DNA of 64,000 nucleotides from Isurus oxyrinchus. Lineage: Eukaryota. The position numbers and the translations under genes are program-made. Below are positions 18,381 through 54,100 of the stretch, in pieces (position 1 is the first letter of the stretch; each line of letters begins with the position of its first letter). Location: the NCBI GenBank assembly GCA_026770705.1, contig JANJGN010000014.1, positions 129,890,001-129,954,000 of the forward strand. The letters are read 5' to 3'. The notes beneath the pieces were generated by a model. That model searched no databases. It saw only the letters and a list, made by a program, of their open reading frames with translations, and was not told the origin of the DNA.

Positions 18381-18611
18381 TGTTATAGAGTTGATCTTCA
18401 GACAACTTCTATTAGTGGAAACATTTAACTTTATTTACAAACAGCAATAGCAACTACACGTGTGCATCAAACTCCATAACTAAAGAAGAACTCTCTGGTC
18501 GAGATTCTCCACACTGTTAACACATTGGGTTTACACTGATCATGTGATCTTACAACACATGATTATTCTTAAAGCTACAGTCCAACATTTCCCAAAACTA
18601 TAGTTACGACG
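18381..18611. mobile_element. Solo LTR of the element-2 family
   Basis: Collinear with 48636-48869. Exact TSD atggt at 18376-18380 and 18612-18616. Sits inside a CR1 3' tail. Confidence 0.9.
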
Positions 18612-31204: not shown

Positions 31205-32217
31205 TGTGATGCTTCAAACAATGCACATCAGTAAATTAAACTTTGGCTGTGATGTATAATACTGTGCCTGTTGTAATGTTATATCAATGAGAATTCCACC
31301 CAGCTGGCTGACAGTGGAGAGACATTGGAGGAGGATGGTGTAGTAAACCATATGAAAGGCGGCAAACAGGTCCAGGAGGATGAGGAGGGAATGTTTACCT
31401 TTGCCTTTTGTGACTTTAAGAACTGTTTTGGTATTGTGGCAGAGGCAAAACCCTATTTGGACAGATTCAAACGTGGAGTTCCAGGAAAGATGGGAATGGA
31501 TTTGGGAGGTGACAACATATTCAGGGACTTTGGAGAGGAAAAGGGGGTTAGAGTTGGGGTGGTAGTTTTCCAGGAGAGTGGGGTCAAGGGTTGGGTTTTG
31601 AACAGGGGTGATGGCAGCAAAGTTAAAGGAGAGAGGGACAACACCTTAAGAGAACCATTAACAATGTCAGCTAACCTGGTGACCAGGAGGGGAAGTTGGG
31701 TGGTCAGCAGTTAGTGGGAATAGGATCAAGGGAGCATGAGGTGAGCGTCATGCACAAGTTTAACTCTGAGAGGCCATGAAGGGTGAGAGGAGAGAAACTA
31801 AAGAAAAATGCGAGTTCAGGGCTTGGGCAGAGAGCAGCATTATAGGAAGTTTGGCTCGGTGGGCTAATGGAAGGGAGGGACACAGCTGATTTAGATTTTA
31901 ATCTTTGTGACCAAGAAATCCATGAGCCCCTCATACTTATTGTTGAAGGTGAATGTACAGAAGGATTTAAGGAGACAGTTTGCAGTAGAGAAAAGATGCA
32001 GGGATTCTCTTTGCATTCCAGGATGATCTGAAGTTTCTCATCTATAGTACCATTCTCATAAACATTCTTGGCACTCTCCTCGTTGGTTCTGATTGATCTG
32101 ATATATGATCTGCTTTGGTGTGTAAAGCGCGTAGGACTCTGTGATGCTTCAAACAATGCACATCAGTAAATTAAACTTAGGCTGTGTTGTATAATACTGT
32201 GCCTGTTGTAATGTTAT
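31205..32217 (+). repeat. 78-bp direct duplication (31205-31282 and 32140-32217)
   Basis: tgtgatgcttcaaacaatgcacatcagtaaattaaact..ctgtgcctgttgtaatgttat present twice with 2 mismatches. Confidence 0.9.
31290..32040 (-). mobile_element. L2-clade LINE fragment
   Basis: Minus-strand TSCSLDPIPTN and TPTL..LSPPKS motifs typical of L2 ORF2. Confidence 0.7.
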
Positions 32218-32484
32218 TTGTTGTCTCACTAAGAGGTTTGTAGTGTTGAACGGTAACTGCTTATTGGTAACACATAGCTAGGTACATCTCCGAAACACAG
32301 CCCTGACTAGGTGTTGCCCTTATGCTGGCTTCGACCAGACTCTCTAGGTCACGTCGGCTCTATGTACTAACCTGTCTGCTCTGCGTGCAGGTCTCTTGTC
32401 ATATGACTCTTTACATCACATAGTAGATGGCAGTGGTCTCTAGTCCCACATTAATCCTTGCTATGCCAAACACCCTTATACCAT
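32204..32484 (-). repeat. 3' LTR of element 1
   Basis: tgttgtaatgtt...ctaagagg...ttattggtaacacata...gccaaacacccttatac is collinear with 37490-38211. Confidence 0.85.
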
Positions 32485-32921
32485 ACCCACCCAAGTCTTT
32501 ATCCAACATATTTGCACAGCAATTTTTTTTTTTTTACGTGCTACCCCACCTCCACTCCAAAGTCTCCAACTTTATATATTCAGACAGTCTGGAGGCTTGA
32601 TGGTTGTCCAGATCCTGTTCTAGTCACACTTAGAGAAGTGGTGAGCTCAGTTGTTTTGGGCAACCTTTTTAGAGTGGAGTTGAAATCATCGTCATCTGTG
32701 TTTCTGGTACTTCGGTGTCTCCGTCTGATTTTCTTTTTGTGCTCCTTGGAGTTGAATTTCTCCTTGTCAACAACCTGTTTGTTTTATTAACAGCAGCACA
32801 TGGGAGGAAATTGCTCAATGGCACACATTTTGGTTTATATGTACACCACTTTTTTGTTTCAAACTATTTTTGCGACTAAGAGAGGAACATTAAATTCCCT
32901 TTAGGAAGGGAACTTAGCCAC

Positions 32922-32994
32922 AGGCTCCAGCAAGAGTCGACCTCATGACCCCTGGTTTACGAGACCAGCGCTCTGACCACTGAGCCATGGAGCC
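32922..32994 (-). tRNA. tRNA-Thr(CGT), decayed copy or pseudogene inside LTR element 1
   Basis: GGCTCCATGGCTCAGTGGTCAGAGCGCTGGTCTCGTAAACCAGGGGTCATGAGGTCGACTCTTGCTGGAGCCT, 73 nt. Acceptor stem GGCTCCA/TGGAGCC, anticodon stem CTGGT/ACCAG, anticodon CGT. T arm degraded with CpG-type changes. Confidence 0.85.
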
Positions 32995-33224
32995 AATTGA
33001 ACAAGCCTGTTTGTTTTATGTGGACGCCCTGCATTTGTCCCATTCATTCTGAAGGCAACGTCCACTCCATTGATTCATAAAGTGGACTCGGGTTTTCTTT
33101 TTCCGTGGGTCCTCCATGACGCACCTGGAAATCAACCTTTCCAAAATGGAACCTACATTTCCACTTGTTTCATAATTTCACCCAAATATTTGTTTACTCT
33201 CTTATTTTCCCATTCTTTTTCAAC

Positions 33225-33800
33225 CTCAATAGTTTTTTGACTCAACTCTGGTGGATTCAATTGTTTTTGTTTGAGTTATCTGCAGAACTCTTCTACAAAT
33301 TTAATAACTTCACCTGGGCATCCAGTTATTTTCAAAACATTTATTCAACGGTCACTGACTGCTCCTTAGATTCTTTCAATTCATTCATTAAATCCGCAGT
33401 CTGTTTCTTAGAATTTTCCATATCTGCTTTTAAAGTCTAGATTTGCTCTTCCACATTGTGCATCTCATCTTTCATGTTCTTCAGATTGGATCCAAGTTTA
33501 AGAATTTCATCAGTCTTAGTTGTTAATTCTGCATTCAACCAGGTATTCTGATTCATCAGCAATTCCTCCTCCAGTTCCAGGCACTTTTCATCATACTTAA
33601 TGAGACTTCTGATACTTGGAATTCATCAGATTTCTAATTGAAGATCTATCTTCATTGAATTTGTTTCTACAAGGTTATCCTTTAAGTGTTTCAAGTCCTC
33701 TTTCAAGTGTTCTACTTCCTGTGAGCGACACTCCAGTGTTCTCATCAGGTCTCATTTTTCATCAGCAAGCTCCTCTTTTGTTCGCGGGCATTGGTTTTCT
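33225..33800 (-). pseudogene. TPR: Captured intronless fragment of the nucleoprotein TPR N-terminal coiled coil (about human aa 108-315)
   Basis: [94 protein letters not shown], compared with recalled TPR [95 protein letters not shown]. Similarity continues to LDAQVKLLNL*KSSADNS (TPR LNAHIKLSNLYKSAADDS). Confidence 0.88.
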
Positions 33801-33859
33801 GTATTGAACAGTTCTTCCTTAACAGGGCCTGATTCCTCTGTGCTATCCTCCAAGCTCAC

Positions 33860-35700
33860 GTCCTGTAATTTTACTTTGGCTAATTGGTTCTGAGCCTCTT
33901 CACGCTCCTTCATGAGTGACTTTCAATTGGGTATGTTGCAGAAGTGGAAAAGAATTATTTTTCTGACTGTCAAGTTGAAGCTGCAAGTTTTCTACTTTTT
34001 GTTGCCCCTGTACATAAGAATTCTCCATCTTCTCCTTTTCCTCATGCAGTTCCAAAACTATGTTGTTCTGTGATGTTTTTATTTTCTTAATTCTTTCAAC
34101 AGGAATGTACTATAACTGCACTCCCTCTTCGAATGCCTGGGTGTCTGCAGCTTGGCATTTTCCTCTTGTCATCTTTCACTTCGCAGTTTGACCTCTGTAC
34201 ACCTGCTCATCACTTTTTCCACATGCTCATCCTTTTGATCCACGGCTTGATCAAACTTGCTTTTCATTTCTACATACACCCCTTTAGAAATGTAATGCTT
34301 TTCCAAGTTCTCTTCCAAATGTCCAATTGTTTTCTGCAGCTCTGCAGTCTCTTTTTTGTGCCTCTTGGCTTCCTCCTGGAATATAGAACATTGCTAAGTA
34401 TTCTCTGCCAACTGGTTCTTCCGTTCTTTCAGTGTGACATTAAATTAATTTTGCTTCTCTTCTTTATTTTCCTGAGGAACAAACTTTGACCTGAGGGATC
34501 CTTGGATTGTGTGAAGATCATTCAACAAGTTTCCCCTTTTTTTTACAAAGCTCAAAGGGGAGGCAATGGTGTAGTGGTATTGTCACTAGACTAATAATCC
34601 AGAAATCCAGGATAATGCTCTGGGCAACTGGATTCAAATCCCAGCTGATGGTGGAATTCAAATTTAGTAAAAATCTGGAAATAAAAAGTCAATGACCATG
34701 AAGTCATTGTTGATTGTTACAAAAATCCAACTGGTTCACTAGTGCCCTTTAGGGAAGGAAATCTGCTGCCCTTACCTGGTCTGGTGGTTGACTCTTAAAT
34801 GCCCTCTAGGGCAACTAGGGATGGGTAATATATGCTGGCCTGGCCAGTGATGCCCACATCCCATAAACAATTTTTAAAAAAAAATGTTTCCTCTTTAATT
34901 TCTTGTAATTCAACTGTCTCCTTGACTTGGTTCTGCTGTTCAAGCCAGTCTTCATGATGTTGAAGGTTTATGTGTTCCTTTTGCATTTGATCTTGAAGGG
35001 CACTCAGCTGTTCTTTCAACTGTTTATATTCTGGTTCAGCTCTTGACTTCTCATTCTGCACTCCAGTGCATTGTTTTGTCGCTGTGGATAGTTCCAGTAC
35101 AGCTCTTCCTGAAGTAGTATTCAACATCTTTTTTAAATTCCTCATGTTTTCACAGGGGCATGTATTGAATATTCAAAGAGATTTTCAGGGCAGCAAATCT
35201 TTTTGAGCACATTTTCTGCCTGCTCTTGTGCCTGGCTGTATTTCTGGCTGAGTTCTCCCAACTCCGTCTTTGATTTGCCAACAATGGAATTCAGAGTTGT
35301 TATTTCCTCATGCTTTTCTGGCGATACATACTGATTCTTCATATGACTCAGATTTTCGCTTATTGCATTTTTCTCAACATTCAAACTTTTTTCTTTCTCA
35401 AAGCCTTTTTGTACTGTCACGATGCCTTAGAAATTTGTTTGTTCAGATCTTGAACCGTTTGGTTCATTGAAAACTTTAGTCTATCATACTTGTTGAAAGG
35501 TACATACTCTGCTTGAATCTTGTGTTCGAAGTCGTCAAATTCAGCTCTGATATAAACATTTTCCAATCTTATTTCTGTCCTTTCTTTATCTACCTGCAGC
35601 TTGGAACGTTCTACAACTCTGCCTCCAATCAGAGCTAGTTGGCTCAGCGCTGTCACCTGCTGTTTCAGTTTGGGTAATGTGTCAGCCATTTTCCTCGAGA
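33860..35700 (-). pseudogene. UACA: Captured UACA-like coiled-coil coding fragment (stops, frameshifts, SINE insertion)
   Basis: Manual translation LNDLHTIQGSLRSKFVPQENKEEKQN*FNVTLKERKNQLAENT*QCSIFQEEAKRHKKETAELQKQL, CTEVK..QEENAK and QLDSQKNNSFPLLQHTQLK. These align in order with recalled human UACA KKELDTIQECIKVKYAP...ELKDQLSEQTQKYSVSEEEVKKNKQENDKLKKEI, YTEVK..VEENAK and LLENQKNSSVPLAEHLQIK. Paralogs RAI14 and ANKRD24 are not formally excluded. Confidence 0.8.
34557..34884 (+). mobile_element. tRNA-derived SINE inserted in the UACA-like cargo
   Basis: A-box-like tggtgtagtgg, B-box-like ggattcaaatccc, 3' tail gggatgggtaatatatgctggcc...gcccacatccc and poly(A). The tail is shared with local LINE fragments. 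Confidence 0.8.
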
Positions 35701-35889
35701 TTTATTTCTAAGCCCTCTGGCTGGTTCTCTGCCTTCCCTTTTCCTCCACACTAAACTCTTCAGCTCATGCGTTCCATTGCACTGACCTGGTCTGCCACCA
35801 TCGTGTGGTTTGTTTGGGTATTGTCTTTTGCCCTTTCATTGCCTATTGAGGGTGTTCTATCCCTTCCTTTAAGTTCTGTGCACTCCACA

Positions 35890-36120
35890 ACTTGAAGATT
35901 AAAATACTTGTCAAAGGCTTTTAATATCTCATCAAAGCTGGCTGAGGACCCATCAATGTCTTGTATTGGGATCACTTCATCAGTAAATACCTCAAACAAG
36001 TGTAAAAACATATTAACTTGGTCTTTCTCTGATTTCCTGATGCACCATGATTCTCTAAAAACATTTTTTTCTCCATGACACCCAATTTTGCATCTGGTTT
36101 GGCCCTTGCATGAGTCCAAA
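35890..36120 (-). pseudogene. Gypsy gag N-terminal remnant (element 1)
   Basis: KSEKDQVNMFLHLFEVFTDEVIPIQDIDGSSASFDEILKAFDKYFNL resembles the QVNTLLY...YDEV..AFD.YF pattern of animal Gypsy gag. Confidence 0.7.
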
Positions 36121-37489
36121 GCGGTCTGGTAGTTTCAATTTACCATCCATAGCTGTTTTTCATAATAGGGGAGCACATCTTTATTTTTCTTCTTCCAGGA
36201 TTACCTCCTCTTCCTGTGCTTGTTGGGTTTTGGAGGGTGTTAGCATCTAATAAGTTGTGTTTAATGAATGTTAAATACCCAGTACTTGATGGTAATAAGG
36301 TGAACATGTGCTGGGTGTTGATTTGCTAATGACGCTCAATTTGTATTTAAGGGAAAGCCAGCCACAGCCTGTCCACAATGTATAGTTAATAAGAGTTAAA
36401 AAACGGTTTCCATTTTATACCCACCTTTGGTCAGGTTGAGCATTCGGCTATATTTACAAAAAAAAATAAATAGATTACATCTTGCTTAAAAAAAATCACA
36501 GGCTGTCAGCAGAGGCTGACCGAGGGGTTCGTCCAGTCCAACTGTCTGCAGCTGGGTTTGCAGCCGGTTGTCCTTGGAGAGGGAGCACGCAGTGTCTGCT
36601 GGCACAATAGAGGCCTTTTGTGCCTGGTAGGCACCGTGGGAACTGGGGTGCTTTATTGATGCTTTTTCACCACAATTTGACATTTGTAAGCTTCTTTTAA
36701 CATTTGACTTTCTATTTGCAGCATCCTTTAAGGGGCTGCTTCTTGATTTGTCCCTCGTTTTACTAATTTAGTTTAATTGTTTTAACAAACGAGTAACACA
36801 AACTGTCTGGTGTGTTAGAGAGGAGAAGACAACTCTAGTGAGCAATACGTCTCGCTACTAAGCATCCTAGTCTCTGTATCTCCTTCACATCCAGGCTTGC
36901 GAGTTGGCCAGCAGGGGGTTTCTGTTAGCACCTTGGAAATATTTGAAAAAATTAGTGATTTTGTAGGAAATCTTCAAATAAGTCGTTTGGACCAGCTACT
37001 TGCCATTTTTTTAAGCCTGGGAAAATAAATTTGAAGCCAATTTTTTAGCCTTCTGCTTTTAATTTTTTTCATTCATTTGAGCTTGGCTGCCATGTGGTGT
37101 GGCATTGCCTCTGGACCTAGACTGCAACGTCCTTCCAGCTGCGCTGGTTAACCAATCAGCATGCTCAGTCTGATAAGTGCCCTGATTAGTTTTAAAAGGT
37201 TAGTTCAGCATTTTAGTGAATTTTGCTCACCCTTTTTGTGATCTGGCTAAGTCCCTTGTCTCTGCATTCGATCAGTTTTGGCTTTTGCTCATTCTTTTGT
37301 GGTCTGGCCAGGTCCTGCATTTGATCAGGTCTGGCAATGGAGCTTTCTCAGGTGACATCCAACTACGTCTTCAATTTAGACACCCTTTTCACAGGTCAGA
37401 CTGCAGTTTCTTTACTTCTTCATGCCTTGAGATTCGGAATCCTCCTCTAGCCTCTTTGAGGTTTTGGGTTCATTCTTTAGCTGCCACCA

Positions 37490-37854
37490 TGTTGTAAGGT
37501 TGTTTGGTTTCTCCCTAAGAGGTTCAGGGGCTTGTAAGGTTAATCAGTAACTGTTTATTGGTAACACATAACTATGTACATCTCCAAGGTACAGCCCTGA
37601 CTTAAGTGCTGTCCTCATGCTAGATTTGACCAGACTTTCTAAATCTTTCTTTTATGCTCCCCCCATCCCCACTAGAGCTATACCTTGAGTGCCCTACCAT
37701 CCATTCTTAATTAGCACATTCGTTTAGATAATATCACTAACTTCAACACCTATGTGTTCTTTTGTTCTTTTGTCTGTAACATCTTTTGATGATCTGCTCC
37801 TATCACTGCTTGTTTGTCCCTACAACCACACCACCCCCCCTCCCCACCCCCCCC

Positions 37855-37931
<77 letters not shown>

Positions 37932-38211
37932 CCCCCACACCTTAAACCAGTTTATATTTCACCCCTTCCTTGGATTCACCTAGTTCTGTTGAAGGGTCAT
38001 GAGGACTTGAAACGTCAACTCTTTTCTTCTCCGCCGATGCTGCCAGACCTGCTGAGTTTTTCCAGGTAATTCTGTTTTTGTTTCTAAATCATGCCTGGTC
38101 TACATAATAACCTGTGTGCAGGTCTATTGACATGTGACTCTTCACACTGTGGGTGGTACTGTTTGCCAGTCTCACATTAACCTTTGCAATGCCAAACACC
38201 CTTATACTGCA
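37490..38211 (-). repeat. 5' LTR of element 1, interrupted by a Penelope-like insertion
   Basis: tgttgtaagg...ctaagagg...ttattggtaacacata...gccaaacacccttatactgca, TG...CA ends, PBS immediately internal. Confidence 0.85.
37646..38080 (+). mobile_element. Penelope-like terminal fragment with (CA)n, inserted in the LTR
   Basis: Exact 10-bp duplication tttctaaatc at 37636-37645 and 38081-38090. Same family as 1-406 and 16269-16514. (CA)n at about 37857-37930. Confidence 0.8.
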
Positions 38212-39116
38212 GTGGCCTCTGACCTTTATCTCTTTAATGTATGACTGCCTTAAATGGTCATTAACCTTCTAAGCTTGTGTTGATGATGCTGGCAGAGTTC
38301 TTTGGCTGTTCTGCATTTTAGTTATCTGTTTTCCTCTTTCTCTTGTCATGGGGTCACGTGGATTCTAGGAGATGGTAAAGCCTGCATTCAGCCATAATAA
38401 CACTGACAAAAGGACAGCCTGGATTGTCTTAATTAATTGAGCTTCACTCATACGTCAGCACAACATCTTGTTGCCAACTGGCATGGCCATTTTATTTCCA
38501 GTCAGGATGTAAGTAGAGACCGATTGATTGATTAAAAGCAAAAAAACTGCGGATGCTGGAAATCCAAAACAAAAACAAAAATACCTAAATAAAAACAAAA
38601 ACAAAACAAAGGATTACTTTTACCTCTGTGGACTCCTGCCTAATAGTGTTAGGCTGATGGGAAATAAAAATGTTGGGATACACTTCAGTGCTGCTTTGAG
38701 GTTTAAGTGACTCAGATCTAACCACCCGCCTCCCCACTCCCCCAAACACGCACCCCCCTCCACCCACCCCGCCCCCCCCCCCCCCCCCCCCCCCCCACCA
38801 CCCTCAACCTCCCATTCCATCCCACCCAATCTATGGGGGCACGCTCACATTACTGGGATGAACAACCTTCCTGGACCAATATGTGAATCAACTCTTTGCT
38901 TATTTGAGAGATACTTTAATGCTGTGACAGCACTCATATTGCTTGGGTCAATCCTCTGTCAACTTTCATTTATATGTACCAGACAAAGATGTCAATCTTA
39001 GTGCTGCAAACCATCATAACCCTAGTCACAGAAATTGATAGCCATGCTGTGTAAATTTGACCCATGATTGCATTCAGGTCTTGCTTCCTATATATTTCAA
39101 ATCACATTGCCATAAT

Positions 39117-39362
39117 CTGGGTTGCCAACCCTGCAGGATTGCCCTGAAGTCTCCAGGAATGGAAGATTAATTGCCAGGATGCTGCTGCAAACAAAATTTG
39201 ATGCTTTCTTTCAGTTTCTTTGAGCAACTCCATTAATTACTTATAGAAATACTAAAAAAAATGGGGTGAAAGGGAAGCTGTCTGACAATTTGGGGCCATT
39301 GGAGTTGGGAGGTCATGTGATGAACTCTCCAGGAAGGTGTCCAACTAGAGTTGGCAACACCA
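39117..39362. mobile_element. hAT (Tip100-like) MITE
   Basis: TIRs ctgggttgccaac / gttggcaacacca. Exact 8-bp TSD gccataat (39109-16, 39363-70). Confidence 0.8.
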
Positions 39363-40634
39363 GCCATAATGTGTGTGCTTACCAAACAGATGTTTTCATA
39401 ATTTGATACTTGGGAAGTGCACCCAACTGAGAGGCTAGTGCTGAATTATAAATCTGACGCTAATAAAGTGGTCTTCAATATTTACTCTGGAACATGAGCT
39501 TTGACTATGTTTAGCCCTCCAGCACATGCAGTCTTGTAAAGATTGAGGTGTTGGAGTGGAACACATTGAAGGGATCAATTGTGGTGCATTTTATGTCTCT
39601 GGCAAGTCACACTCAACAAATCTAGCATTTAACATTTGGTGACTGCTCTGTCTTCCTTCTTTGTTTCCCCTTGGGTCAATCTTAAGGAGTCCAGTTTGTG
39701 ATCTTAGGCTGTGCTCCAGAACATGAGTGTTTTCAGCCTTTGTGGCTTGATAGAACAAAATTGTTAATCATCACCAGTAATGGGTGGGTATACAAGCTAA
39801 TGACATCTGTGGTGTAAACGTGTCTCCTGCATATGACTGGAGTATTGTAAATGAGCAGCAAGTATTTGGTTACTTATTCATCTCTTCCCCACAAAAGCAA
39901 AGGATCGTTTCTCAGCAAACAAACACAAATGCTGCCTTTTACAGACACTGTGACTGGGCAGTCAATGGTGATATGTGGCGACATTATGTTCAGCTCCTCA
40001 GGGACCAAATATCTCGACCCAAACTTGCACACGTTTTCATTCTTTGTGGCTCTAAGATAACAGTAATTTGGACAAAAGATTTTCTAGTTACACTATCATG
40101 AATAGAGGTCAAGGTGGTACATAATCCAACAACTAGGCCTTTGGTTATACAGTGGAAAGACAAATTGCTTGTGATCTATTGTACTAATGTCAGTAGGGGA
40201 CTAGCAATAAAAAAGAGGTTCAGATGGTTTCAGATTTTTTTTCCCGAGGCTTTTAGATGTGAGAGTGATTGATAATGTCTTTATTGGTTCTGACAGAAAC
40301 AAAACTAGATATTGAATATTTTACGCAGGGAATGTTTGAGCAGCTTGGGACTTCCATCTGTCAGACCACTGCTTATCAGCTACCTCCCTCCTCTTGGGTC
40401 AGTATCATTTATGCAGGCAGCCAGCCAATATGACAGGGTTATTTTTCATCTCCATGTATAGAAAATAAAACAAACAATGATTCCTTGCTGATGGTTTCAT
40501 AAAATTGTTGCTTTGTTGGCCAGGTGGCAACCAATAGGTTTTCAAATGGAACCCTAAAATGGTTACTGCCAGAAATAGGCCTTTCAGCCTGTTAGGCCTG
40601 TAATAGCTCTCTTCCAGAGCATTCAAACAGGCAC

Positions 40635-41520
40635 ATGAACATACAAATTAGGAGCAGGAGTAGTCCATTAGGCCGCTCTAGCCTTCTCCACCATTCAATA
40701 AAATCATGGCTGATCTGATTGTAACCACTCGCTTACCCCTGATAACCATTCACCCTCTTGTTTATCAAGATTCTATCTACCTCTACCTTAAAAATATTCA
40801 AATACTCTGCTTCCATCGCCTTTTGAGGAAGAGAGTTCCAAAGGCTCTCAAACTTCTGAGAGAAAAAAAAAATCCTCATCTGTCTTAAATTGGTGACCCC
40901 TTATTTAAAAAAAGTAACACCTGGTTTTAAAATCTCCCGTAAGAGGAAACATCCTCTCCGCATCCACCCTGTCAAAACCCTTCAGAATCTTAAAGGTTTC
41001 AATCAAGTCACCTCTTACTCTTCTGAACTGCAGTGTTTACAATCCTATCCTGTCCAACCTTTCCTTATAAGACAACTCATCCAAATCTGGTATTAGTCCA
41101 GTAAACTTTCTCTGAACTGCTAATGCATTTACACCTTTCCTTAAATAAGGAGACCAATACTGTAAACAATGGTCCAGATGTGGTCTCACCAGTGCCCTGT
41201 ACAACTGAAGCATAACCTCCCTACTTTTGTATTCAATTGTCCTCACAATAAATGATAACATTCCATTAGCTTTCCTAATTACCTGCTGTATCTGCATACT
41301 AAACTTCTGCAATTCATGCACTGGGACACCTAGACCCATCTGCATCTCTGATCTCTGCAACCTCTCACCACTTAGATAATATGTTTTTTTTATTTTCCAG
41401 CCAAAATGTAGCCTCCTTATGTCCTCTTCACAACTTACTTTCCCGCCTATCTTTTGTGTCACCTGCAGATTTAGTAACCTTATCTTTGGTCCCTTCATCC
41501 AAGCTGTCTTGCTTGTAAAA
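40635..41520 (-). mobile_element. CR1 LINE 3' fragment
   Basis: KANGMLSFI..LYRALVRPHLDHCLQYWSPYL..SYKERLDRIGL. Confidence 0.88.
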
Positions 41521-44500: not shown

Positions 44501-47500
44501 TAATGCCCTTTCCAAATATTTTTTTTATAAAAACAAGAAACACCCTTGTCTTTCTTAGCCAAAGGCTAAGGAAAGTTTAGTGAACAGCACATGTACAATG
44601 GAGAGTGAGCCTCTGCAGTGTGGGCTGTTCTGCTGTCCCTCTGGCCGCTGGGAGTAGTTGCACAGTGTGAAAGCAATTGAGCTATGCTTGAGGCAGATGG
44701 GAGCTGAGCTGTACTGACCGCCACAGAGGCAACTGAGCTCTTCATAAGTAAGGGTAGATTATCCCCATAGAATTCCTTTCTTGCAAGCACTGACTCTCTG
44801 TCAGGTGATTTTACAACTGCTGACAAGTACCCAGCCAAGTACCCATTTTAAAAAAAACAGACCTGACCTCCATTTATATAACGCTTGTCACCGCCTCGAG
44901 TGTCCCAAAGTGCCATACAACCAATGAAGTATTTGTGAAGTTTAGTCATTGTTGTAATGTATGAAATGTTGCAACCAATTGTTCTATTATTTGTCCATGG
45001 GTATCGCTGGCAAGGCCAACATTTATTTCCCATCCCTAAATGCCTTTGAGATGTGGCAGTGAGCCTTCTCAAACTGCTGCAGCCTGTATGGTGCAGGTAC
45101 ACCCAGTGTTAGGGACAGAGTTCCAGGATTTTGACTCGGCAACAGTAAAGGAACAGCAATTTATATTCCTAGTCAGGAAGCTGTGTGACTTCAAGGGGAA
45201 CTTGCAGATGGTGTTGTTTAAATTGCCTGTTGACCTTGTTGTTCTAGCTAGTAGAGGTCACAGGTTTTGAAGGTGCTATCGAAGGAGGCTTGGTGAGTTG
45301 CTGCAGTGCATCTTGTAGATGGTACACACTGCTGCCACTGTGCTTCGGTGGTGGAGGAAGTGAATGTTTAAGGTGTTAGATGGGTTCCAATCACGGGCAC
45401 ATAAAGGTCCTACAAACAGTAATTTGATAATCAGATAATCTGTTTTTCTGGTGTTGGTTGAGAGATCTAGAACACCAAGAGGACGCTTCTGCTCTTCCAT
45501 GATCTTTTACACCCAATTGAAAATGATTTAACTTCTTACCAAAAAATGGCACCTCTGACAGCACGGCACTCCTTCGGTACTACACTGGAGCGTCAGCCTA
45601 GCAAATGTTAGTATCCTCTTCAATCGTAAAAGTCAGTGCAGCAAGGTCCCATCCAGTTCTTACATGGCAAACATACAGTTGGTAATTGTCAGAAGTAGAA
45701 ACCCTTCTTAATATTTTGTTTCTTTTATGACCAGAAGAATTATAGACAACTAATGCTGAAATCAGCTAATTCTACAATGACTGGGAATCCAATTGAATTG
45801 GACACCTTCTGGGCTGGGTACAATGCAAAGTCTTCCTTTACCTAAAAATCATTTTAGGAAGTTGCAGCATATGGTTTTAGCAGATGCTGTACAGTTAATA
45901 ATAAATTTGTCACTGCTGGGTCAATTGTGTAACATGATATCACTTCACAAAACACATGATAGGTAAGTGAGAGGCTATTGTCCATTGCTGTGGTCCTGGC
46001 ATCCACTTGAAAAGAACAGAATGGGAAAACAAGGCAAGCTCCCAGGTGAAAATCACTATATTTTGTAAAGAATATCATGTGCCAGGGTGTAGATGAGGGA
46101 ACTCAACATGAAACTGTGACTTGCATGTATCACTTGCTATAGAACTGTAGTAAATAGGATACGAGAGGCTAGTAGATATGGTATTTGACTTTCTTTAATC
46201 CATTCTTGGGATGTGAGTTTCGCTGGCAAAGCCAGTGTTCATTGCCCATCCATAATTGCCCTTGAGGAGGAGGTGGTGTGCTGTGGCTCTTGAATCGCTG
46301 CAATCCTTCCTGTGTAGGTACACCCAGAGTGCTGTTAGGGAGGGGGTTCCAGGATTTTGACCCCAGTGACAGTGATGGAACAGCAATATAGTTTCCAGTC
46401 AGGATGGCGTGTGGCTTGGAGGGGCACCTGCAGGTGATGGTGGTGTTCCCATGCGTCTGTTGCCCTGGTTCTTTTAAGTGGTAGAGGTCGTGGGTTTGGA
46501 ACATGCTGTCAAAAGAGCCTTGGTGAGTTGCTGCAGTGCATCTTGTACATAGTACACTACCGCTACTGTGAGTGGAGAGTGTGAATGTTTAAAGTGGTGG
46601 TAGTTATCTAGAGGTCTGGGCTAATAGCCCAGAGAGTGAGTTCAAATTCCACCTTGGCAGTTTGAAAATTTTAACTTTTTAAAACAAAAAGTGAAGTAAC
46701 AAATTTAAATCTAGAAATAAGAAGCCTGCATCTGTAAAAGGTCAGGAAGTTGCTGGATTCTCATTTAAAACCCACTGGTTGGTGAACCTCTTTTCTGGAA
46801 TGGAAATTGCCATCTTAATCTGTCCAATATGGGGCTAATATCCAATGTGACCAATCAGTTGCTTCAAATTGCCACCCAGTGCCTCAAGAAGAACGTGGGC
46901 CATTACCATATATCCAGAGCATCTAGGAATGGGCAATAAATGCTGATGATGCCCACATCCTTTACCAAAATCAATCTTCAGTGAGGAACTTTAAGTCATT
47001 ATCAAGTGTACTTTGAAGTATGTGAAGTTACTGGTGGCTGTCACCTGAGTCTCTATAGCCATGTATGTTTTCTGATTGTAACACTTTAGCATGTATTAAA
47101 TCATTGAAGCTATCCAATTAGGCCCATATCCCTCCCCTTTGATGCCCTTATAATGTTTAATAAGGGAAGTGGAATTTTTTTTTATGGATTCCAGTTCCAC
47201 CCCTGTTTCTAGCAGTTCATATCCAAACCACCCATTGCATGAGGAGAAAAATTGTCCAAGCCTCTCTTTGTTCATTTTGGAAAGCTTATGCTCCCAGTTA
47301 GTAACCAACTGGCCAGTGGAGATAGATATTGAAAGAGTTAAAGTTTAAGGACATAACAGAACAAGCTATCGCATCTATGCACAAGAGCTCCAACATTGGC
47401 CTAGTCTCTAATACTTGCCAAATGCCTTGACTGAGCTGAAAATTAGATGGTTTACGAGAGTTTATTTGAGAACAAAATGGTATTGTGCATAATGAAGGAA

Positions 47501-47679
47501 GTTTATCCAATACTCCATAGATTGTTCAGAGTAGAGTTGCTGTTTTGGGCTCAATCAGCGAATCTGGATGCAAATTGCACTCAGAATTGTGCTTTGTCGA
47601 AGTGATGTTATAATTAATATCTGCCTTTGAACCAGCACAATAGGGCAGCGTATTAGAATGTAGGTGTTATTTCTTTTTT

Positions 47680-48340
47680 AAAAATTTGTTCATGGAATGT
47701 GGGCATCTCTGGCTAGGCCAGCACTTATTGTCCATTCCTAATTGCCCGTGAGATGGTGGTGGTGAGCTGCCATTTTGAACTGCTGCAGTCCATGTGGTGT
47801 AGGTACACCTGCAGTGCTGTTAGGGAGGGAGTTCCAGGATTTTGACCCAGCGACAGTGAATGAACGGTGATATATCCCCAAGTCAGGATGGTGAGTGACT
47901 TGGAGGGAAACTTCCAGGTGGTGGTTGTGTCTGCTGCCCTTGTCCTTCTAGATGGTAGTGGCTGTGGGTTTGGACAGTGCTATCTAAGGAGCCTTGGTGA
48001 ACTTCTGCAGTGCATCTTGTAGATGGTACACACTGCTGCTACTATGCATCAATGGTGGAGTGAGCGAAATGTTTGTGGATGGGGTGCCAATCAAGTGGCG
48101 GCTTTGTCGTGGATGGTGTCGAGCTTTGTGAATGTTGTTGGAGCTGCACTTGTCCAGGCAAGTGGGGGGTATTCCATCACACTCCTGACTTGTGCCTTGT
48201 AGATGAATAGGTTTTGGCGAGTCAGGAGATGAGTTACTCAATGCAGGATTCCTAGCCTCTGACCTGCTCTTTAGCCATAGTATTTATGCGGCTAGCCCAA
48301 CTCCGTTTCTGGTCAATGGTAGCCCCCAGGATGTTGATAC
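47680..48340 (-). mobile_element. LINE 3' fragment, same family as 7664-8200
   Basis: Collinear with 7664-8200 and extends further 5'. Confidence 0.8.
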
Positions 48341-49399
48341 CATTCTCCTTGCATTAAAAAAAAAATTTTGATATATTTTAAGAGTGGTAAGCTGGTGCAG
48401 TTTTTTTATTATTTGTTCATGGGATGTGGGTAACACTAGATAGGCTAGCATTTATTGCCCATCGCTAATTGCCCTTGAGTATGTAGTGGTGAGCTGCCTT
48501 CTTGAACCACTGCAGTCCATGTGATGTAGATGCTTTCATTAATGCTGCTGAAAGTTTATCAAAAAGTAAGCATTTTTAATTAATGTCAATACAACAGCTG
48601 TGAGTAACTAATTTTAAATAACTGAAAAAAACTACTGTTATAGAGTTGATCTTCCAGGCAACTTTTCTTGGTGGACACATTTAACTATATTTACAAGACA
48701 GGAGCAGCAACTACATGTGTGCATCAAACTCTATAACTAAAGAAGAACTCTTTCCCCCAAAGATTCTCCATGCTGTGAACCCAATGATTTACACAGATCA
48801 TGTGATCTTACAACACAGGATAATTCTTAAAGCTGCAGTCTTACATTTATCCAGACTATAATTACTACATTCCTCCCCCATTTAACTTTTTTGTACATTT
48901 TTGTATTTACAAGGATATTTATCTCATGACATTACAACGTTTACACAGGTCATGAAATTACAAGTTCAGTCTTTCAGGTGGTTTCCTGATCCGTATGGAA
49001 CGTCACAGCTCCGTGACTACAATTCTTTTGCAGGAACCACATTCTCTGGATTGGTCCAATCATAGAGCTTACTTTACCAGGTCACCACTTCAGTCCTCCA
49101 CCGAAATTCTTTACATATGCTACTTCTCCAAGAGTAAATTGTCGCTCATAACTATGCAAATCATGAGTCGTTTTTTGGTTCCACCATCCCCCTCCAAATT
49201 GGGAAGTATCAGGCTGAGTCCTGTTCGAAGACAGTGCCTCATCAGTAATTCTATGTGTCTTCTTCTTTCTACCACAGAATTTAGTTTCTGCTTTCTTTTA
49301 GACTGTACTGTCAGCCAGACTTCTCTTGGATACAATCTCAACTTGTCTTAGTTCAGTAGTTGAGCTACCCATGACTTCATTATCTACTCTCTTCATGGA

Positions 49400-49880
49400 A
49401 AGTTCTAAGACTTTTGCTTTAAAAGCCTCTTTGGTTTCATTCAACTGATTCTTCAGCTGTCTGTCTCCTTATTGTATCTGTTGGCTTCCTCCTGGAACCT
49501 TTGATATTGCTGTTTCTTCTCTGCAACCTGGTTCTTCAGTTTGTCCAGAGGTGTTAAATTCTTCCTGTTTCTCTTCATAAATTTTAGAGGTAAAAACTTT
49601 GACCTAAGGGATCCTTGTCGAGTGTGAAGGTCTTTCCACTCCTTGTCTTTTCGAAGCTCACTTGCTTCATCTTGAATTCTGTCATTCAGCAGAGTCTCCT
49701 TGGGTTTCGCCGCTGTTCTTCCCCATGTTGTTGTTTAAGACGATCTTCATTTCTTCAGGTTGCTGAATAGCTACACAGTCCTTTTTTCATCCTGTTGCAG
49801 TCCTTGGACTCTCCAAGCTCTTTCTGAATTACCTTGCCTTGTTCCTTTTCCAACTCAGGAATTCATCCTGCTTCCTTTTG
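49400..49880 (-). pseudogene. UACA: Captured UACA-like coiled-coil fragment in place of RT/RNase H/integrase core (element 2)
   Basis: KDLHTRQGSLRSKFLPL..YEEKQEEFN..LKNQVAEKKQQYQRFQEEANRYNKET is homologous at DNA and protein level to 34320-34525 and to the recalled UACA coiled coil. Confidence 0.8.
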
Positions 49881-49889
49881 AAATCTCAC

Positions 49890-51115
49890 TGGCCAATTAA
49901 GATTAACTTCCCTCAACCAATTTCGACTTAGAAGGCTTGTTCCTCTGCCTTCTAATACCATCAATGCTGGTTGTGCCGATTGGTGTCTATAATGAACGAG
50001 TTATTCTGGTGATACCTTTAACCTGAATTTCTTTACTTGTATACTTTTTCAACTTGGCAAATGTTTGTTCCAAATTTAACTGTTAATCATCTTTATTTAA
50101 ATATCTGAAAGTGTGTTCTTCTATTACAGTGGTAGAAACACCCATGTCTATTTACATTTTTAATGGTTTAACCATTCACTTGCACTGTGATAATAATTGG
50201 CTCTGTCTTCCCAATTTTCATGTTGAATAATGAATAAATGTCAGAATTGGTTGTTTCTGGCTCTGCTACACTATAGGCTTCATTGGACTTTGATTGTCGC
50301 CTAGAAGCCTGTTTAAATCTCACTTTGCAATGTTTCAATATGTATCCACTTCTGTGACAAAAATAACACTCTACCTTTTTAAATTGCTGATCGTTAGTAT
50401 GATTGTTCCCATGTTGATAAAAATTAGTTTTCAACTTTGCTGTTAAGCTGTTTCTTCTAAGTTTACAGTTAGCGGGGGCTGTTTCCCACTTCGCAGTGGA
50501 ATCTCAGCTTTACGTGCCACTTTTGGCTGACTGTTCTCGCCTAATTAGGATAACGGTGCCATTTTGTGCACTTTAAATCACGTGTGAATCACTTGCAGCA
50601 TTTACCATCGCCAGCGTTATTTCTAATGCTTTCTTAAAATCAAGATTCACTTCAGCCAGCAGTCTTCGCTGAACACCACACCACACCACACACCACACCA
50701 CACCACACACCACAGACCAAATGATCTCCGAGCATATCGTTCAGGGTTTCACCAAAATCACAACATTCCATTTAGTTGTTTTAATTTCGTCACGTAGGTA
50801 GTAATGGTCTTCCCCAGGGTTCTATTCCATGAATTGAACCTGAACCTCGGCATTGTGACTTGAGGGCTTAGGTTAAAAATGTCCCTTAACGAGGCCTAAT
50901 AATTAACTGAAGGTCTTCAAATCTGGGGTACTGGAGGCCATCAAGTTTCGAATTAAACCATAGGTCTTGCTTCCACAAATACTCGGGAGGATCGCTTTCC
51001 TCTTTTCCTCTTTTGTGATTTCGTTGCCTTGAAAGAAGAACGCAAGACATTCTATTTTGAGACCAATCATCTGTGGCTGGTTCAAAAGGATCGATTCTGC
51101 CAAACTGTGGCATCT
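49890..51115 (-). pseudogene. Gypsy gag and aspartic protease, degenerate (element 2)
   Basis: Frameshifted gag (IECLAFFFQGNEITKEEKRKAILPSICGSKTYGLIRNL), CCHC-like knuckle, catalytic DTG read as DMG (ACG>ATG), (CACCA)n expansion at about 50672-50713. Confidence 0.88.
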
Positions 51116-54100
51116 CGGATGAGTATATCATCTTTTCTTTTTGATTATCTTAGATACTCACAATCACTTGGTGAGGTACAGCACCAGATCTGATTTATCC
51201 TCATCACCAGTTTGTTATAGAATTGATCTTCCAGACAACTTTTCTTGGCGGACGCATTTAACTATATTTACAAGACAGGAGCAGCAACTACATGTGTGCA
51301 TCAAACTCTACAGCTAAAGAAGAACTCTTCCCCCAGAGGTTCTCCACTCTGCTAACCCATTGGTTTACAGAGACCATGTGATCTTACAACACAGATTTAT
51401 TCTTAAAGCTACAGTCCTATGTTTATCAAAATTATAATTACTATAACTACGTAAAGTATTAAAACTTTACAGTACCCCACTGGAGAGTTACATTGTACAC
51501 TAATGTTTTCAAGTAAATTATTTTTTAATGTTTAAAACTTTTAAAAGATGCCTATTAGTGGCTATCACTCATATTGCAGGGGTGGCACAGACAAGTTGTC
51601 TAGCCATTTTTGTTAGGCGGGGCAAGTATAATTGGGGAAATGCATGTTGGAGATGGGAGAGGAGGAGAGCAAAAAAAAACAGGACAAACTTCTTAATGAC
51701 CATGAACATTCTTCTACTTTGCTCCTTTATTTTGATTTTTTAGAACTTGCTTGAGCAAAGTGGACCATATTAGAGAAACTGACTCGAAGAAATGGCTGAG
51801 CCTTAGGAGCATAAGTTGTTATGACTTGCATCCATAAACTTACATACAACAAGTCCCACATACACTCAAATTCAGAATAGTGAAGGCGGCGAACGCGGTA
51901 AAAACAAAATGTTGAGATGTTAAGTTGGTCAAAATGGTTTGATTTTATTCGCTTCTCTTGAAAAAGGGGGTTCCATTTAGAACCCTTTGCCTTTGTTTCT
52001 GGTGTTGTAGCCACTAGTGGGATGGTAGCCCAGTGGTTACGTAACTGGACTAGTAACCCAGCGGCCTGGGTTTAATGATTTAGATCCAGAGACATGAGTT
52101 CAAATCCCACCATAGCAATTTTAGTTTTAAATTCAGTTAATTTAATAGATCTGAAATTTAAAAAACAGGACTCACGCTATGTTGTAAAAATCCATCTGGT
52201 TTACTAATGGCATTTAGGGAAGGAAAACTGCCATCCTCACCCGATGTGACCTATATATGACTCTGGACCCACAGAAATGTGGTTGACTTTTAAGTGAAAT
52301 AGTTTAGCAAGCCAGGCAGTTGTCAAGAAGCTGGCTCGCTATCACTTTCTCCAACTAGTTGGATAATAAACGCTGGTCTTGCCGGTGATGTGTCCATATT
52401 GTAAACTAATTTAAAACCTATCAGGTTCTGAGGTACATTCCCAGCTGATCCCCTGTGGGTATTTTAATCAGCTGACTTCTGTGGAAACCATGCATTAGTT
52501 GTTAGAGACAGGAGTCAAATTCACCACAAAGAACACATGCAAATCTTGCTCAGCTAAGAATATTTCTGTCTAACACTTGTCCTGTTGTATTCTGATTTAG
52601 GCAATTATATCTATTATATCTTATCCCTTTTCCAGCCTGTATGTAAATGGCACCTGCTTTGTTATGATAATATTAATATGGGTATCTCTCTGAGTAACGT
52701 ATTGTCTGAGGAACGTTGTAAAAATCCAACCCTGCTGGAAACTACTGTGCTTTGTGTGTGTTTGCCTCTAGAAATCATTAGATTTTGCAGTTAGAGGAGA
52801 ACTGGAGAGAATGAGAGCGAACACAGATGACAGGAAACACCACACGAAGGATGTACCACAGTCTCATTTCAAAAGAAAAATGGTGTCTGAATTCTTCAGT
52901 CTCTTTTTTTCTCTTCTAATCCCATAAAGTGTTATCATTTAATATATTTTTCCTTCCCCCCCCACCCCCCCCCCCCCACCTACATTTTCACTTAACATTT
53001 GTCACTCCATCTAATTTCCTACTAAAGCAAAGTACTGCATATGGTAGAAATCTGAAATAAAAGCAGGAAATGCTGGAAGCGCTCACCAGGTTTAACACCA
53101 TATGTGGAGATAAATTCAGGTAACATTTCAGGTGGTTAACCCATCTCTCTCTCTCTCCCTCCCTCCCTCCCTCCCTGCCCCCAATCTCTCTCTCTCTCTC
53201 TCTCTCTTTCCCCCCCCACCCTCCCCCTTTAAGATACTCCTTAAAACAGATCATCACCTCACCTGCTTAATATCTCCTCAGTGTCAAATTTTGTTTCACT
53301 CCTGTGAAGTGGCGTGGAATGTTTTATCTATGTTAAAAGCGCTATATAAATGCAAGTTGTTGTTGCTGTGATCTAATCTTATGTGTGCATGCACTCCCCG
53401 TCAACTTTTATCCATGCCCAATTTAAGAAGGGGGACCACCACCCCACCCTTATTAGGGATGGGCAATAAAAGTGCTGGCCTAGACAGCGATACCCACATC
53501 CCGTGAAAGAATAAAAATAACCTTCCCCATTTTACACCCACCACCAAACCTCCTCCACCTCTGACCCCCAGTGAGATGCTGCAGCATTACTACTGACTGG
53601 CGAGTATTCTTTTTTCATTCTCTAAAGTCTGTCTTTGCACAAAGGTTCAGATTGAATGGGGTGGCCAGGAGGCTGCTCAATGGTGTAATGAGAAGAGGGT
53701 GAGATTGGGTTAACCATATGGGAGAGGTGGGGAGAGACCAGAACATTGATATGACCTACCCTCATAACCTCCCGAAACACTTCACAAGCAATGGATTATA
53801 ATGACACCTGAAGTGAAATTGGTGGACATGGCAGTCAATCAACATAAATAGTAAAAGAGACGAATGATCACATAATTTCTTTCTGTCAATATTGGTTTAG
53901 GGGAGAATGTTGACCAGGACACAATGAACTCTCCCCTTTAAATGGTGCCCAGAGCTCTCTAACCTAGCAAATAGGAATGTTGTTTAATACCTCTGCAACA
54001 TTAGGGCATCATCAACAACACAGCAGTCATTTGAAAACAGCCCGGAGAGCCTAGATTACATTCTCAAGTCCTGGAATGGGACTTGAACCCATAACCTTCA

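Follow-up and report, generated by a model that had tools for sequence, protein, structure and literature searches.

Transducing defective retroviruses carry gag-onc fusions in which host mRNA stands in frame with gag, replaces pol and depends on a helper, and Fv1/TRIM5-type factors combine a capsid binder with a coiled coil. Among LTR elements, maize Bs1 holds pieces of three host genes, all for unrelated enzymes, in one hybrid open frame described as a transcribed and translated chimeric gene (PMC13317346). In animals, LTR-mediated retroposition as described by Tan et al. (2016; PMC5131818) yields young retrocopies, individually counted at 3–15 per species, in which host mRNA pieces lie between LTR-element flanks instead of internal ORFs; switch points show micro-similarity, several parental genes can be combined (four in a mouse case), and chimeras go through further rounds of retroposition as non-autonomous elements. 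HERV-K/FAM8A1 provides another comparison for gag-host fusion (PMC5131818). Bdelloid LTR retrotransposons carry extra coding cargo, including coiled-coil types, swapped between unrelated retroelements, in separate ORF3s behind pol that were considered not to have been taken recently from the host (PMC5408684).

Here we describe two Gypsy families, both non-autonomous, from a lamnid shark genome, in which pieces of host coiled-coil mRNA have replaced the enzyme core. The mechanism is already known and is Bs1-like: an LTR element with three host genes' pieces in one hybrid frame. In contrast to Bs1, every donor is a coiled coil, the elements reside in a vertebrate, the amino-acid sequence has drifted neutrally and the copies examined are decayed; an intact hybrid ORF under sequence constraint was not found (0/98 intact, omega about 0.9). 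The elements share the chimeric build and non-autonomous amplification reported by Tan et al., but comprise thousands of candidate loci with many in-frame deletion subfamilies and a transfer of cargo between two unrelated families. Unlike the bdelloid ORF3s, the shark cargo stands in place of the pol core, continues from Gag or protease as a fusion, and can be traced to named host exons. The gag-onc and HERV-K/FAM8A1 fusions differ from these elements, which are Gypsy, have neither envelope nor signalling domain and were amplified over a long time in the germline. In family 1 a Gag-derived piece lies beside a coiled coil, a likeness to Fv1/TRIM5-type factors that is resemblance only, as no domesticated intact locus was seen among the copies examined and the sequence is not conserved. 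Most known cases of host-gene capture by LTR elements in animals are isolated young loci, few in number, whereas the shark families are abundant and long-lived; we found no published precedent at such scale with inter-family cargo transfer.

Structure, abundance and host donors of two families

The window, 64,000 nt of Isurus oxyrinchus contig JANJGN010000014.1 (GCA_026770705.1, positions 129,890,001–129,954,000, forward strand), contains both elements on the minus strand (Table 1), where the original prediction had placed them. The LTR1 family shows the Ty3/Gypsy hallmarks of LTRs, PBS, PPT and 5-bp TSD, and the LTRs of element 1 are 77% alike in two blocks (32204–32346 vs 37490–37641; 32381–32481 vs 38112–38207). 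The LTR2 family, presumably of the Mag-like clade, has TG..CA LTR ends, PBS, PPT and TSDs of 4–6 bp; in the window copy one terminal dinucleotide is mutated and the LTRs are 88% alike (48636–48867 vs 51213–51443). We take the PBS of element 1 to be of tRNA-Leu type and that of element 2 of tRNA-Ser type.

Table 1. Features of the cargo-bearing elements and a solo LTR in the window
Feature	Position	Strand	Remarks
Solo LTR, LTR2 family	18381..18610	-	82-83% to both element-2 LTRs; ATGGT either side
Element 1, 3' LTR	32204..32484	-	TSD GTGCC at 32199-32203
Element 1, integrase C-terminal tail	32490..33138	-	placed by position and an end motif that we take to mark integrase; natural ORF in L010
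Element 1, spliced nucleoporin TPR cargo	33139..33830	-	start and end approximate; ~aa 98-437, internal deletions; host exons abut, introns absent
Element 1, ninein coiled-coil piece	33832..33916	-	85 nt, 78%
Element 1, UACA giant-exon cargo	33920..35564	-	host exon nt 930-2278, 79-83% identical
Element 1, linker Z (~35 codons) and remnant of downstream UACA piece	35565..35762	-	
Element 1, gag remnant	35763..36134	-	capsid N-terminal part fused to pre-nucleocapsid linker
Element 1, PBS	37480..37489	-	same motif recurs in other copies
Element 1, 5' LTR (LTR1 family)	37490..38211	-	split by later insertion ~37642-38095; TSD GTGGC at 38212-38216
Element 2, 3' LTR	48636..48867	-	TSD ACTAC at 48631-48635
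Element 2, integrase C-terminal tail and polypurine tract	48868..49252	-	tail out of frame with cargo family-wide
Element 2, linker Y' and Lys/Arg-rich end	49253..49349	-	non-host, common to LTR1 family; family frame stops here
Element 2, UACA cargo	49350..49789	-	host exon nt 1510-1862 fused in frame to nt 2304-2411
Element 2, post-protease linker	49790..49874	-	far diverged from RT-bearing family (20 family-wide differences/54 nt)
Element 2, aspartic protease	49875..50229	-	sister copy L041: PF13975 above cut-off
Element 2, gag with zinc knuckle, full length	50230..51140	-	family-wide same as RT-bearing LTR2 family's
Element 2, PBS	51199..51209	-	
Element 2, 5' LTR (LTR2 family)	51213..51445	-	TSD ACTAC at 51446-51450

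As originally laid out, the cargo follows the gag N-terminus in element 1 and the protease in element 2. By eye, against the fuller gag with zinc knuckle of a same-clade element adjoining L076, the gag remnant of element 1 is without the C-terminal part of capsid and the knuckle, and it gave no significant Pfam and no blastp match. Repeat insertions break its UACA cargo (~34556–34881) and occupy its integrase tail (tRNA-like, ~32789–33005), and its cargo contains 12 stops and 9 frameshifts in 612 codons. An RT-bearing relative of element 2 (L182) has the LTR2, gag, PR, RVT_1 (PF00078), RNase H (PF17919) and integrase (PF17921) in Gypsy order. The gag of this RT-bearing family differs family-wide from that of element-2 copies at 2/879 sites, and the ~2.25 kb RT-RNase H-IN core of L182 is absent from cargo-bearing family 2. 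The window gave no tblastn match to RT, and neither element gave a tblastx match to the RT-RNase H-integrase core of an RT-bearing relative; the predicted loss of this core was thus upheld, with the addition that the C-terminal tail of integrase survives in each. Family 2 would make its own Gag and protease and rely on its RT-bearing LTR2 relatives for RT and integrase. A search for an RT-bearing LTR1-family helper found none.

The two families amount to thousands of candidate loci in the lamnid shark genome. The 98 copies examined (68 LTR1, 30 LTR2) are all old and decayed, none intact. Copies are dispersed over many contigs with differing flanking sequence, LTRs bound both sides in 10/15 LTR1 and 15/20 LTR2 copies fetched, and 24 of 27 loci chosen by gag alone carry cargo. 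The original prediction of a multi-copy non-autonomous class was therefore borne out against both a cargo confined to one locus and a family otherwise free of it. A third possibility, a later retrocopy with its own TSD and poly(A), does not fit either, because the cargo is fused straight onto element sequence in fixed phase, replacing the internal ORFs.

The cargo had been recognised as UACA, which is correct for its largest part: the host exon (L021) matches Carcharodon UACA at 99% identity, and cargo copies show ~70–86% DNA identity to it. The 5' part of that exon outside the captured segment is single-copy. The ninein and TPR donors of element 1 had been missed. In sister subfamilies the ninein piece is longer, reaching as much as 270 nt. 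In the window element eight TPR host exons are joined, and at least three are joined in 53/68 LTR1 copies; the missing introns show capture from spliced mRNA, on which the UACA and ninein pieces, each from within a single exon, are uninformative. Amplified subfamilies differ widely in how long their cargo is and what it contains, and some are without UACA or TPR entirely. The cargo is rich in adenine (39–44% A vs 31% in pol). A basking-shark 'uncharacterized protein' shows the same layout, an example of the false UACA-, TPR- or ninein-like gene models that such copies yield in sharks.

Open reading frame and amino-acid drift

Some twenty recombination events are recorded inside the families, all but one in frame. 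Twenty-two recurrent junction types are in frame, 20 of them clearly; at two gag-side junctions phase was read from alignment column counts, per-copy lengths being noisy. For the 16 host-host junctions, all in frame, the chance is 6e-4 under a micro-homology null and 0.002 assuming 75% in-frame odds for each. None of 77 cargo-derived family-wide amino-acid changes is a stop (5.5 expected, P=0.003), a count in which some changes may be the host's, the TPR outgroup being one protein; for family 2 alone the figure is 0/26 and the deficit is not significant. The sole family-wide small deletion is of 3 nt. Omega is 0.92 (quartets 0.69–0.86), and family-wide changes are no more conservative than private ones (BLOSUM, p=0.42). 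Selection for coiled-coil fusion proteins, as originally proposed with dN/dS as its check, is thus upheld for the open frame by junctions and stops, while amino-acid-level selection was not found, omega of about 0.9 indicating near-neutral drift. These sequence comparisons support a frame that was probably held open during family spread while the amino-acid sequence drifted almost neutrally.

The history to which we lean, with modest confidence, combines capture by template switching, handover between families and selection for an open frame with no particular protein favoured. In an ancestor of galeomorph sharks, an LTR1-type element would have taken up TPR, ninein and UACA mRNA pieces as reverse transcriptase switched templates at short homologies. 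The donor mRNAs are A/G-rich and have in-frame micro-homologies in common, so that each capture would favour another coiled-coil donor and an in-frame joint. A helper would have gone on copying the element while many deletion subfamilies arose, and a further template switch may have placed the UACA module of one of these, with its deletion and linker Y, between the protease and the integrase tail of the unrelated LTR2 family. Master copies would have been selected for one long open frame while spreading, and not for a given protein sequence, most likely because a fully translated RNA evades nonsense-mediated decay or is packaged more efficiently with its own Gag, in which case the sequence coding for coiled coil would be filler.

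The main rival, possible but in our view unlikely, keeps this history and has selection act on the fusion protein; little specific sequence is needed to form a coiled coil. In family 1 the fusion to a capsid piece could be an oligomerising tether co-assembling with helper particles, and in family 2 a coiled coil behind the protease could take over from the lost RT and integrase the dimerisation that activates the protease. All three identified donors contribute coiled coil, neither ankyrin nor any other donor domain having been captured, and a single-sequence structure prediction for the open cargo frame of one natural copy (mean pLDDT 78) gives two long helices that run through the UACA-ninein-TPR joints. 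Changes to Pro/Gly make up 5% of family-wide vs 11% of private changes (not significant, p=0.14), and the frame and stop data agree equally well with this reading. When a heterologous zipper was placed behind HIV-1 protease, cleavage of Gag was enhanced, but the same experiment gave a lower particle yield (PMC3291649). The reading is further opposed by the omega, the absent BLOSUM shift, the variable cargo of amplified subfamilies, the loss of most of capsid and of the zinc knuckle in family 1, and the absence of intact copies among those examined. It is doubtful that a class of parasitic LTR elements took up host coiled coils as exchangeable modules for oligomerisation with which to exploit helper particles; if true, such modules on a capsid fragment or protease would have carried defective elements to thousands of copies and been traded between unrelated Gypsy families, and the successive TPR, ninein and UACA captures would reflect selection for coiled-coil structure, not sequence.

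Selection on the frame may also be dispensed with, if micro-homology biased the joints in frame and the masters accumulated too few changes during copying for stops to arise. Between 46 and 53% of k-mers common to donor coding sequences are in phase at 4 nt and 62–95% at 9 nt, and omega is near 1. A frameshifting deletion of 4 nt common to two copies (L025, L075) shows that copying of at least one broken variant continued, and the family-2 frame ends ~46 codons past the UACA piece with the tail junction out of frame, so that reading to the element end was not required. We nevertheless regard this explanation as improbable, given the joint probability for the 16 host-host junctions and the independent stop deficit; exact homology at these junctions, scored solely as the longest exact run and blurred by old divergence, spans 2–13 nt and at many only 2–6 nt. 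The families are a natural data set for the hard question whether selection on the RNA of a non-autonomous element concerns the protein it encodes or simply the fact that it is translated.

Probable passage of the UACA cargo between families

Within the window, the elements resemble each other only at 34332–34526 vs 49449–49639 (74% over 196 nt, E 1e-25), with no LTR or gag similarity found between them. This agrees with the original view of unrelated families with a common internal segment, whose two quoted peptides both occur in the translations. The UACA 1862/2304 junction, an internal deletion, occurs in 29/30 LTR2 and 8/68 LTR1 copies; the second UACA piece of element 2 (49457–49350) is absent from the window's element 1. 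Linker Y is 56% alike between families (29% when shuffled, 30% vs host continuation). All nine cargo rows form one clade (SH-aLRT 97) in a tree whose family-2 rows cover only 25–28% of columns, and five amino-acid states common to both cargos are absent from 13/13 other shark and ray UACA proteins. Ninein and TPR occur in 0/30 LTR2 copies, and family-wide changes in 436 sites number 4 LTR1-only vs 59 LTR2-only, both taken for a direction from LTR1 to LTR2.

The comparison supports a single capture of UACA, after which the cargo was probably handed from an LTR1-type to the LTR2 family. Of the alternatives first put forward, exchange is therefore preferred over repeated capture, because of the shared derived junctions and cargo monophyly. 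An abundant mRNA could have been encountered by each family on its own, and monophyly of long-branched, partly filled rows can be an artefact, yet two independent captures, or local gene conversion between the window elements, are very improbable and largely refuted by the same breakpoint and non-host linker in both families, the joint amino-acid states, and identities of 85–87% to the own family elsewhere vs 74% to each other. Passage of cargo between families that differ in LTRs, primers and Gags implies that their RNAs met in one particle, and the shared junctions could be phylogenetic markers among galeomorph sharks. The cargo branch of family 2 is long beside an unchanged gag, a pattern that points to an intermediate carrier outside the sample or to a gag repeatedly renewed from the helper.

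Elements, copies and age

The two Gypsy elements of the window, element 1 (family 1, LTR1 type) and element 2 (family 2, LTR2 type), were confirmed to have unlike LTRs and a common internal segment, and no RT, RNase H or integrase core was found in either (see table). Their sole mutual similarity was a stretch of 196 nt (74%). Local duplication was rejected as the source of this similarity, and so was gene conversion of one element by the other. Both elements have decayed, with 12 stops and 9 frameshifts in the 612 cargo codons of element 1 and no stops and 5 frameshifts in the 127 of element 2. We take the primer binding sites to be of the tRNA-Leu type in element 1 and of the tRNA-Ser type in element 2.

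Coordinates of the elements, their neighbouring features and related loci (window positions unless a contig, C, or a fetched locus, L, is named)
Feature	Position	Strand	Description
Element 1	32204-38211	minus	LTRs 77% alike; TSD matches 4/5
Element 2	48636-51445	minus	LTRs 88% alike; perfect 5-bp TSD
Solo LTR, LTR2 family	18381-18610		5-bp TSD; 30 kb from element 2
Copy of the left junction of element 1	31205-31282		78 nt, 97% identical (flank, TSD and the opening 14 nt of the LTR); 935 nt upstream of that junction; a small local duplication postdating the insertion of element 1
tRNA-Thr called by ARAGORN	32922-32994		Within the insertion that splits the integrase tail of element 1; probably a tRNA-derived SINE
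Match to host TPR	33796-33139		Eight exons adjoining one another, introns gone
Family-2 protease end and post-protease linker	49790-49900		Also in sister copies
Host TPR gene	C16:74.25-74.27 Mb
Host ninein exon	C19:47.785 Mb		Cargo piece 78-83% identical
RT-like stretch	L079:5720-6270		Within or next to a rearranged family-1 copy
Nested family-1 copy	L076:900-2650		Inside a related element of the same clade

The same builds were present in 15 element-1-type and 20 element-2-type copies fetched with their flanks, and both LTRs were found in 10 and 15 of these, respectively (one of the latter 15 by a 20-nt alignment). Cargo was also present in 24 of 27 new loci selected by family-1 gag alone, and no RT match was found in the sequence examined around these 27. 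The original prediction of a multi-copy class of cargo-bearing, non-autonomous LTR elements was thus borne out. First-look searches returned candidate loci, which are not copy numbers, for family-1 gag (6,869), the RT family (3,820), family-2 cargo (3,661), the ninein-TPR piece (1,963) and the Y-ninein piece (896); a figure of 14,412 candidates was set aside as inflated because the query contains a repeat insertion. LTR-LTR distances were 0.13-0.22 in family 1 (median 0.18, n=11) and 0.11-0.23 in family 2 (median 0.15, n=16), and on this divergence the insertions are old. Two near-identical family-1 copies on one contig (L005 and L006 on C21), 9.8 kb apart, are a tandem duplication that takes in the element; each adjoins an open frame, which we presume to resemble an immunoglobulin V-type exon.

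Donors of the cargo and its transfer between families

A search of the 4.98-Gb assembly, where the window lies on C14, with the interior of element 1 returned a single locus with a long open exon (L021, 911 codons). This exon was identified as UACA, in accordance with the predicted origin of the cargo, and its 99% identity to the Carcharodon protein makes the host a lamnid shark. The 5' part of the exon, which was not captured, is single-copy in the genome. The nucleoporin TPR supplied the 3' part (PF25481 above the cut-off; whale-shark TPR match with E 1e-33), and its exons are joined without introns, which is proof that a spliced mRNA was captured. A ninein piece (aa 1178-1266) separates UACA from TPR and was recovered as ninein in six of six matches; an atlas search with this piece gave generic coiled-coil matches and nothing else. 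All three donors were present in 50 of 68 LTR1-type copies, one or two in 15 and none in 3, as judged from the sequence examined; ninein or TPR was found in none of 30 LTR2-type copies. Two short linkers, Y (about 33 codons, following UACA nt 2415) and Z (about 35 codons, following the gag remnant), are open and in frame. Neither had a clear match to the UACA, ninein or TPR proteins compared, and they may represent two more captured genes, a fourth and a fifth. An origin of linker Y from LTR2 integrase was rejected, local alignments of 52 copies against L182, an RT-bearing LTR2 relative, scoring at shuffle level.

The original prediction had offered repeated capture of one host mRNA and exchange between families as alternatives, and exchange is favoured by a common deletion junction, by linker Y and by monophyly of the cargo. 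Family-2 UACA consists of exon nt 1510-1862 fused to 2304-2411 and followed by linker Y; the 1862/2304 junction was found in 29 of 30 family-2 and 8 of 68 family-1 copies. Between the families linker Y is 56% alike; shuffled sequences gave 29% (at most 45%), and comparison with the host continuation gave 30%. In a protein tree with UACA of 14 sharks and rays, a quick search including 9 of 98 cargo copies and with family-2 rows one quarter filled, the nine cargo rows grouped together (SH-aLRT 97), and their clade joined Lamniformes and Carcharhiniformes in a polytomy. That each family captured UACA independently is, given these shared features, very improbable. Both families share 17 amino-acid differences from the host, of which 5 are cargo-specific and 12 are states in other sharks and rays; these common states place the capture before the lamnid-basking shark lineage's own changes. 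The shared region holds 4 further family-wide changes in family 1 vs 59 in family 2, and family 1 was therefore the source of the cargo that family 2 received.

In the basking shark, one gene model (XP_078395215.1) shows this UACA deletion together with a family-1-type linker. A search of representatives with the natural protease-cargo frame gave two cargo-only proteins and none spanning protease and cargo among the best 150 matches. A cargo-like protein of 113 aa (P0155) was present in a sequencing-run assembly.

Retention of the reading frame

Phase was scored at each junction present in at least three copies. Frame was kept at ninein-TPR (19/20), at the TPR internal deletions (19/20, 35/36 and 35/39), at UACA 1862/2304 (26/30) and five other UACA deletions (4/4, 5/5, 6/6, 6/6 and 6/8), and at UACA-ninein (16/18), TPR-integrase tail (16/21) and protease-UACA (25/29). 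In total, 22 junction types were in frame, including three noisier spans, two of them weak, with column counts divisible by three; the exception was the Y-to-integrase junction of family 2, where the frame ends. Among family-2 copies (L081-L100 and L052-L060) there are two 3' variants, with short (18) or long (8) integrase remnants, and in both the cargo frame stops at a Lys/Arg-rich stretch, which we take to resemble a nuclear localisation signal. An out-of-frame TPR group of four copies was discounted, its members having different private 4-nt losses save for one pair (L025/L075) with a 4-nt deletion in common; this pair also shares TPR-segment variants, yet has unlike UACA layouts, which suggests recombination between subfamilies. 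Evidence independent of junction phase comes from stops, which made up none of the 77 cargo-derived family-wide amino-acid changes vs 7.1% of 4,188 private changes (P=0.003).

Selection on Gag- or protease-coiled-coil fusions, as originally proposed, thus finds support for the open frame, as judged by phase and stops, but not for the amino-acid sequence: omega between families was 0.92 (39:14 vs 942:310), and family-wide cargo changes were not conservative. An omega of 0.32 against the host was rejected as a sign of cargo selection because 42 of 56 UACA differences are states in other sharks and rays, the changes belonging to the host lineage.

The cargo may have been assembled by template switching among co-packaged RNAs with, after the first capture, a bias toward A/G-rich coiled-coil mRNAs (the cargo is 39-44% A), and master copies would have been selected for a translated RNA. 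On balance we favour a frame kept for a benefit at the RNA level, either escape from decay or packaging with the element's own Gag. Selection of a sequence-tolerant fusion protein is a more tentative proposition; the natural cargo frame is predicted to fold as two long helices, and Gag cleavage is reported to increase when a zipper is placed behind HIV-1 protease, though with a lower particle yield (PMC3291649). A pure micro-homology bias is unlikely. Micro-homology was chosen as the null because coiled-coil coding sequences have in-frame micro-homologies in common (in-frame share 46-53% at 4 nt and 62-95% at 9 nt), and under it the chance of frame retention was 6e-4 at the 16 host-host junctions; granting each of the 22 junctions a generous 75% gave 0.002.

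Host-gene capture by LTR elements is known, with gag-onc fusions and Fv1 as analogies; its scale here, the three coiled-coil donors and the hand-over between families in a vertebrate had no counterpart in the literature covered. These vertebrate Gypsy elements do carry an ancient cargo in high copy, built from three coiled-coil donors, which passed between unrelated families and was held in frame. Judged by sequence, the shark families appear to work like LTR-mediated retroposition and to share structural features described for it (PMC5131818). Maize Bs1 likewise has three donors within one frame (PMC13317346), whereas no intact constrained gene was found among the 98 shark copies examined, and bdelloid rotifers are described as swapping extra ORFs among retroelements (PMC5408684). 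The open literature covered gave no account of shark elements with cargo from UACA, ninein or TPR, and the families may be catalogued in Repbase, Dfam, subscription journals or supplements with their cargo unrecognised.

Helper elements

A search by RT identified L182, which carries LTR2 at both ends and the same gag and protease, followed by RT, RNase H and integrase. Between element-2 copies and RT-bearing loci (L182 and fifteen others like it), family-wide differences were found at 2 of 879 sites in gag, 9 of 293 in protease and 20 of 54 just past the protease. On these figures family 2 is a replacement derivative of this RT-bearing family, presumably of the Mag-like clade. Toward the end of the protease and in the linker after it, family 2 lies far from the RT-bearing family, whereas in gag it does not; none of the 46 RT loci examined matched these parts better, which hints at an unsampled intermediate carrier. 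For family 1, none of 30 RT loci matched its gag or LTR, a weak negative as the query RT was of family-2 type. The element in which one family-1 copy is nested (L076) has a fuller gag with a zinc knuckle; it is a lead toward a family-1 helper, and its fuller gag indicates that family 1 lost the C-terminal part of the capsid and the zinc knuckle.
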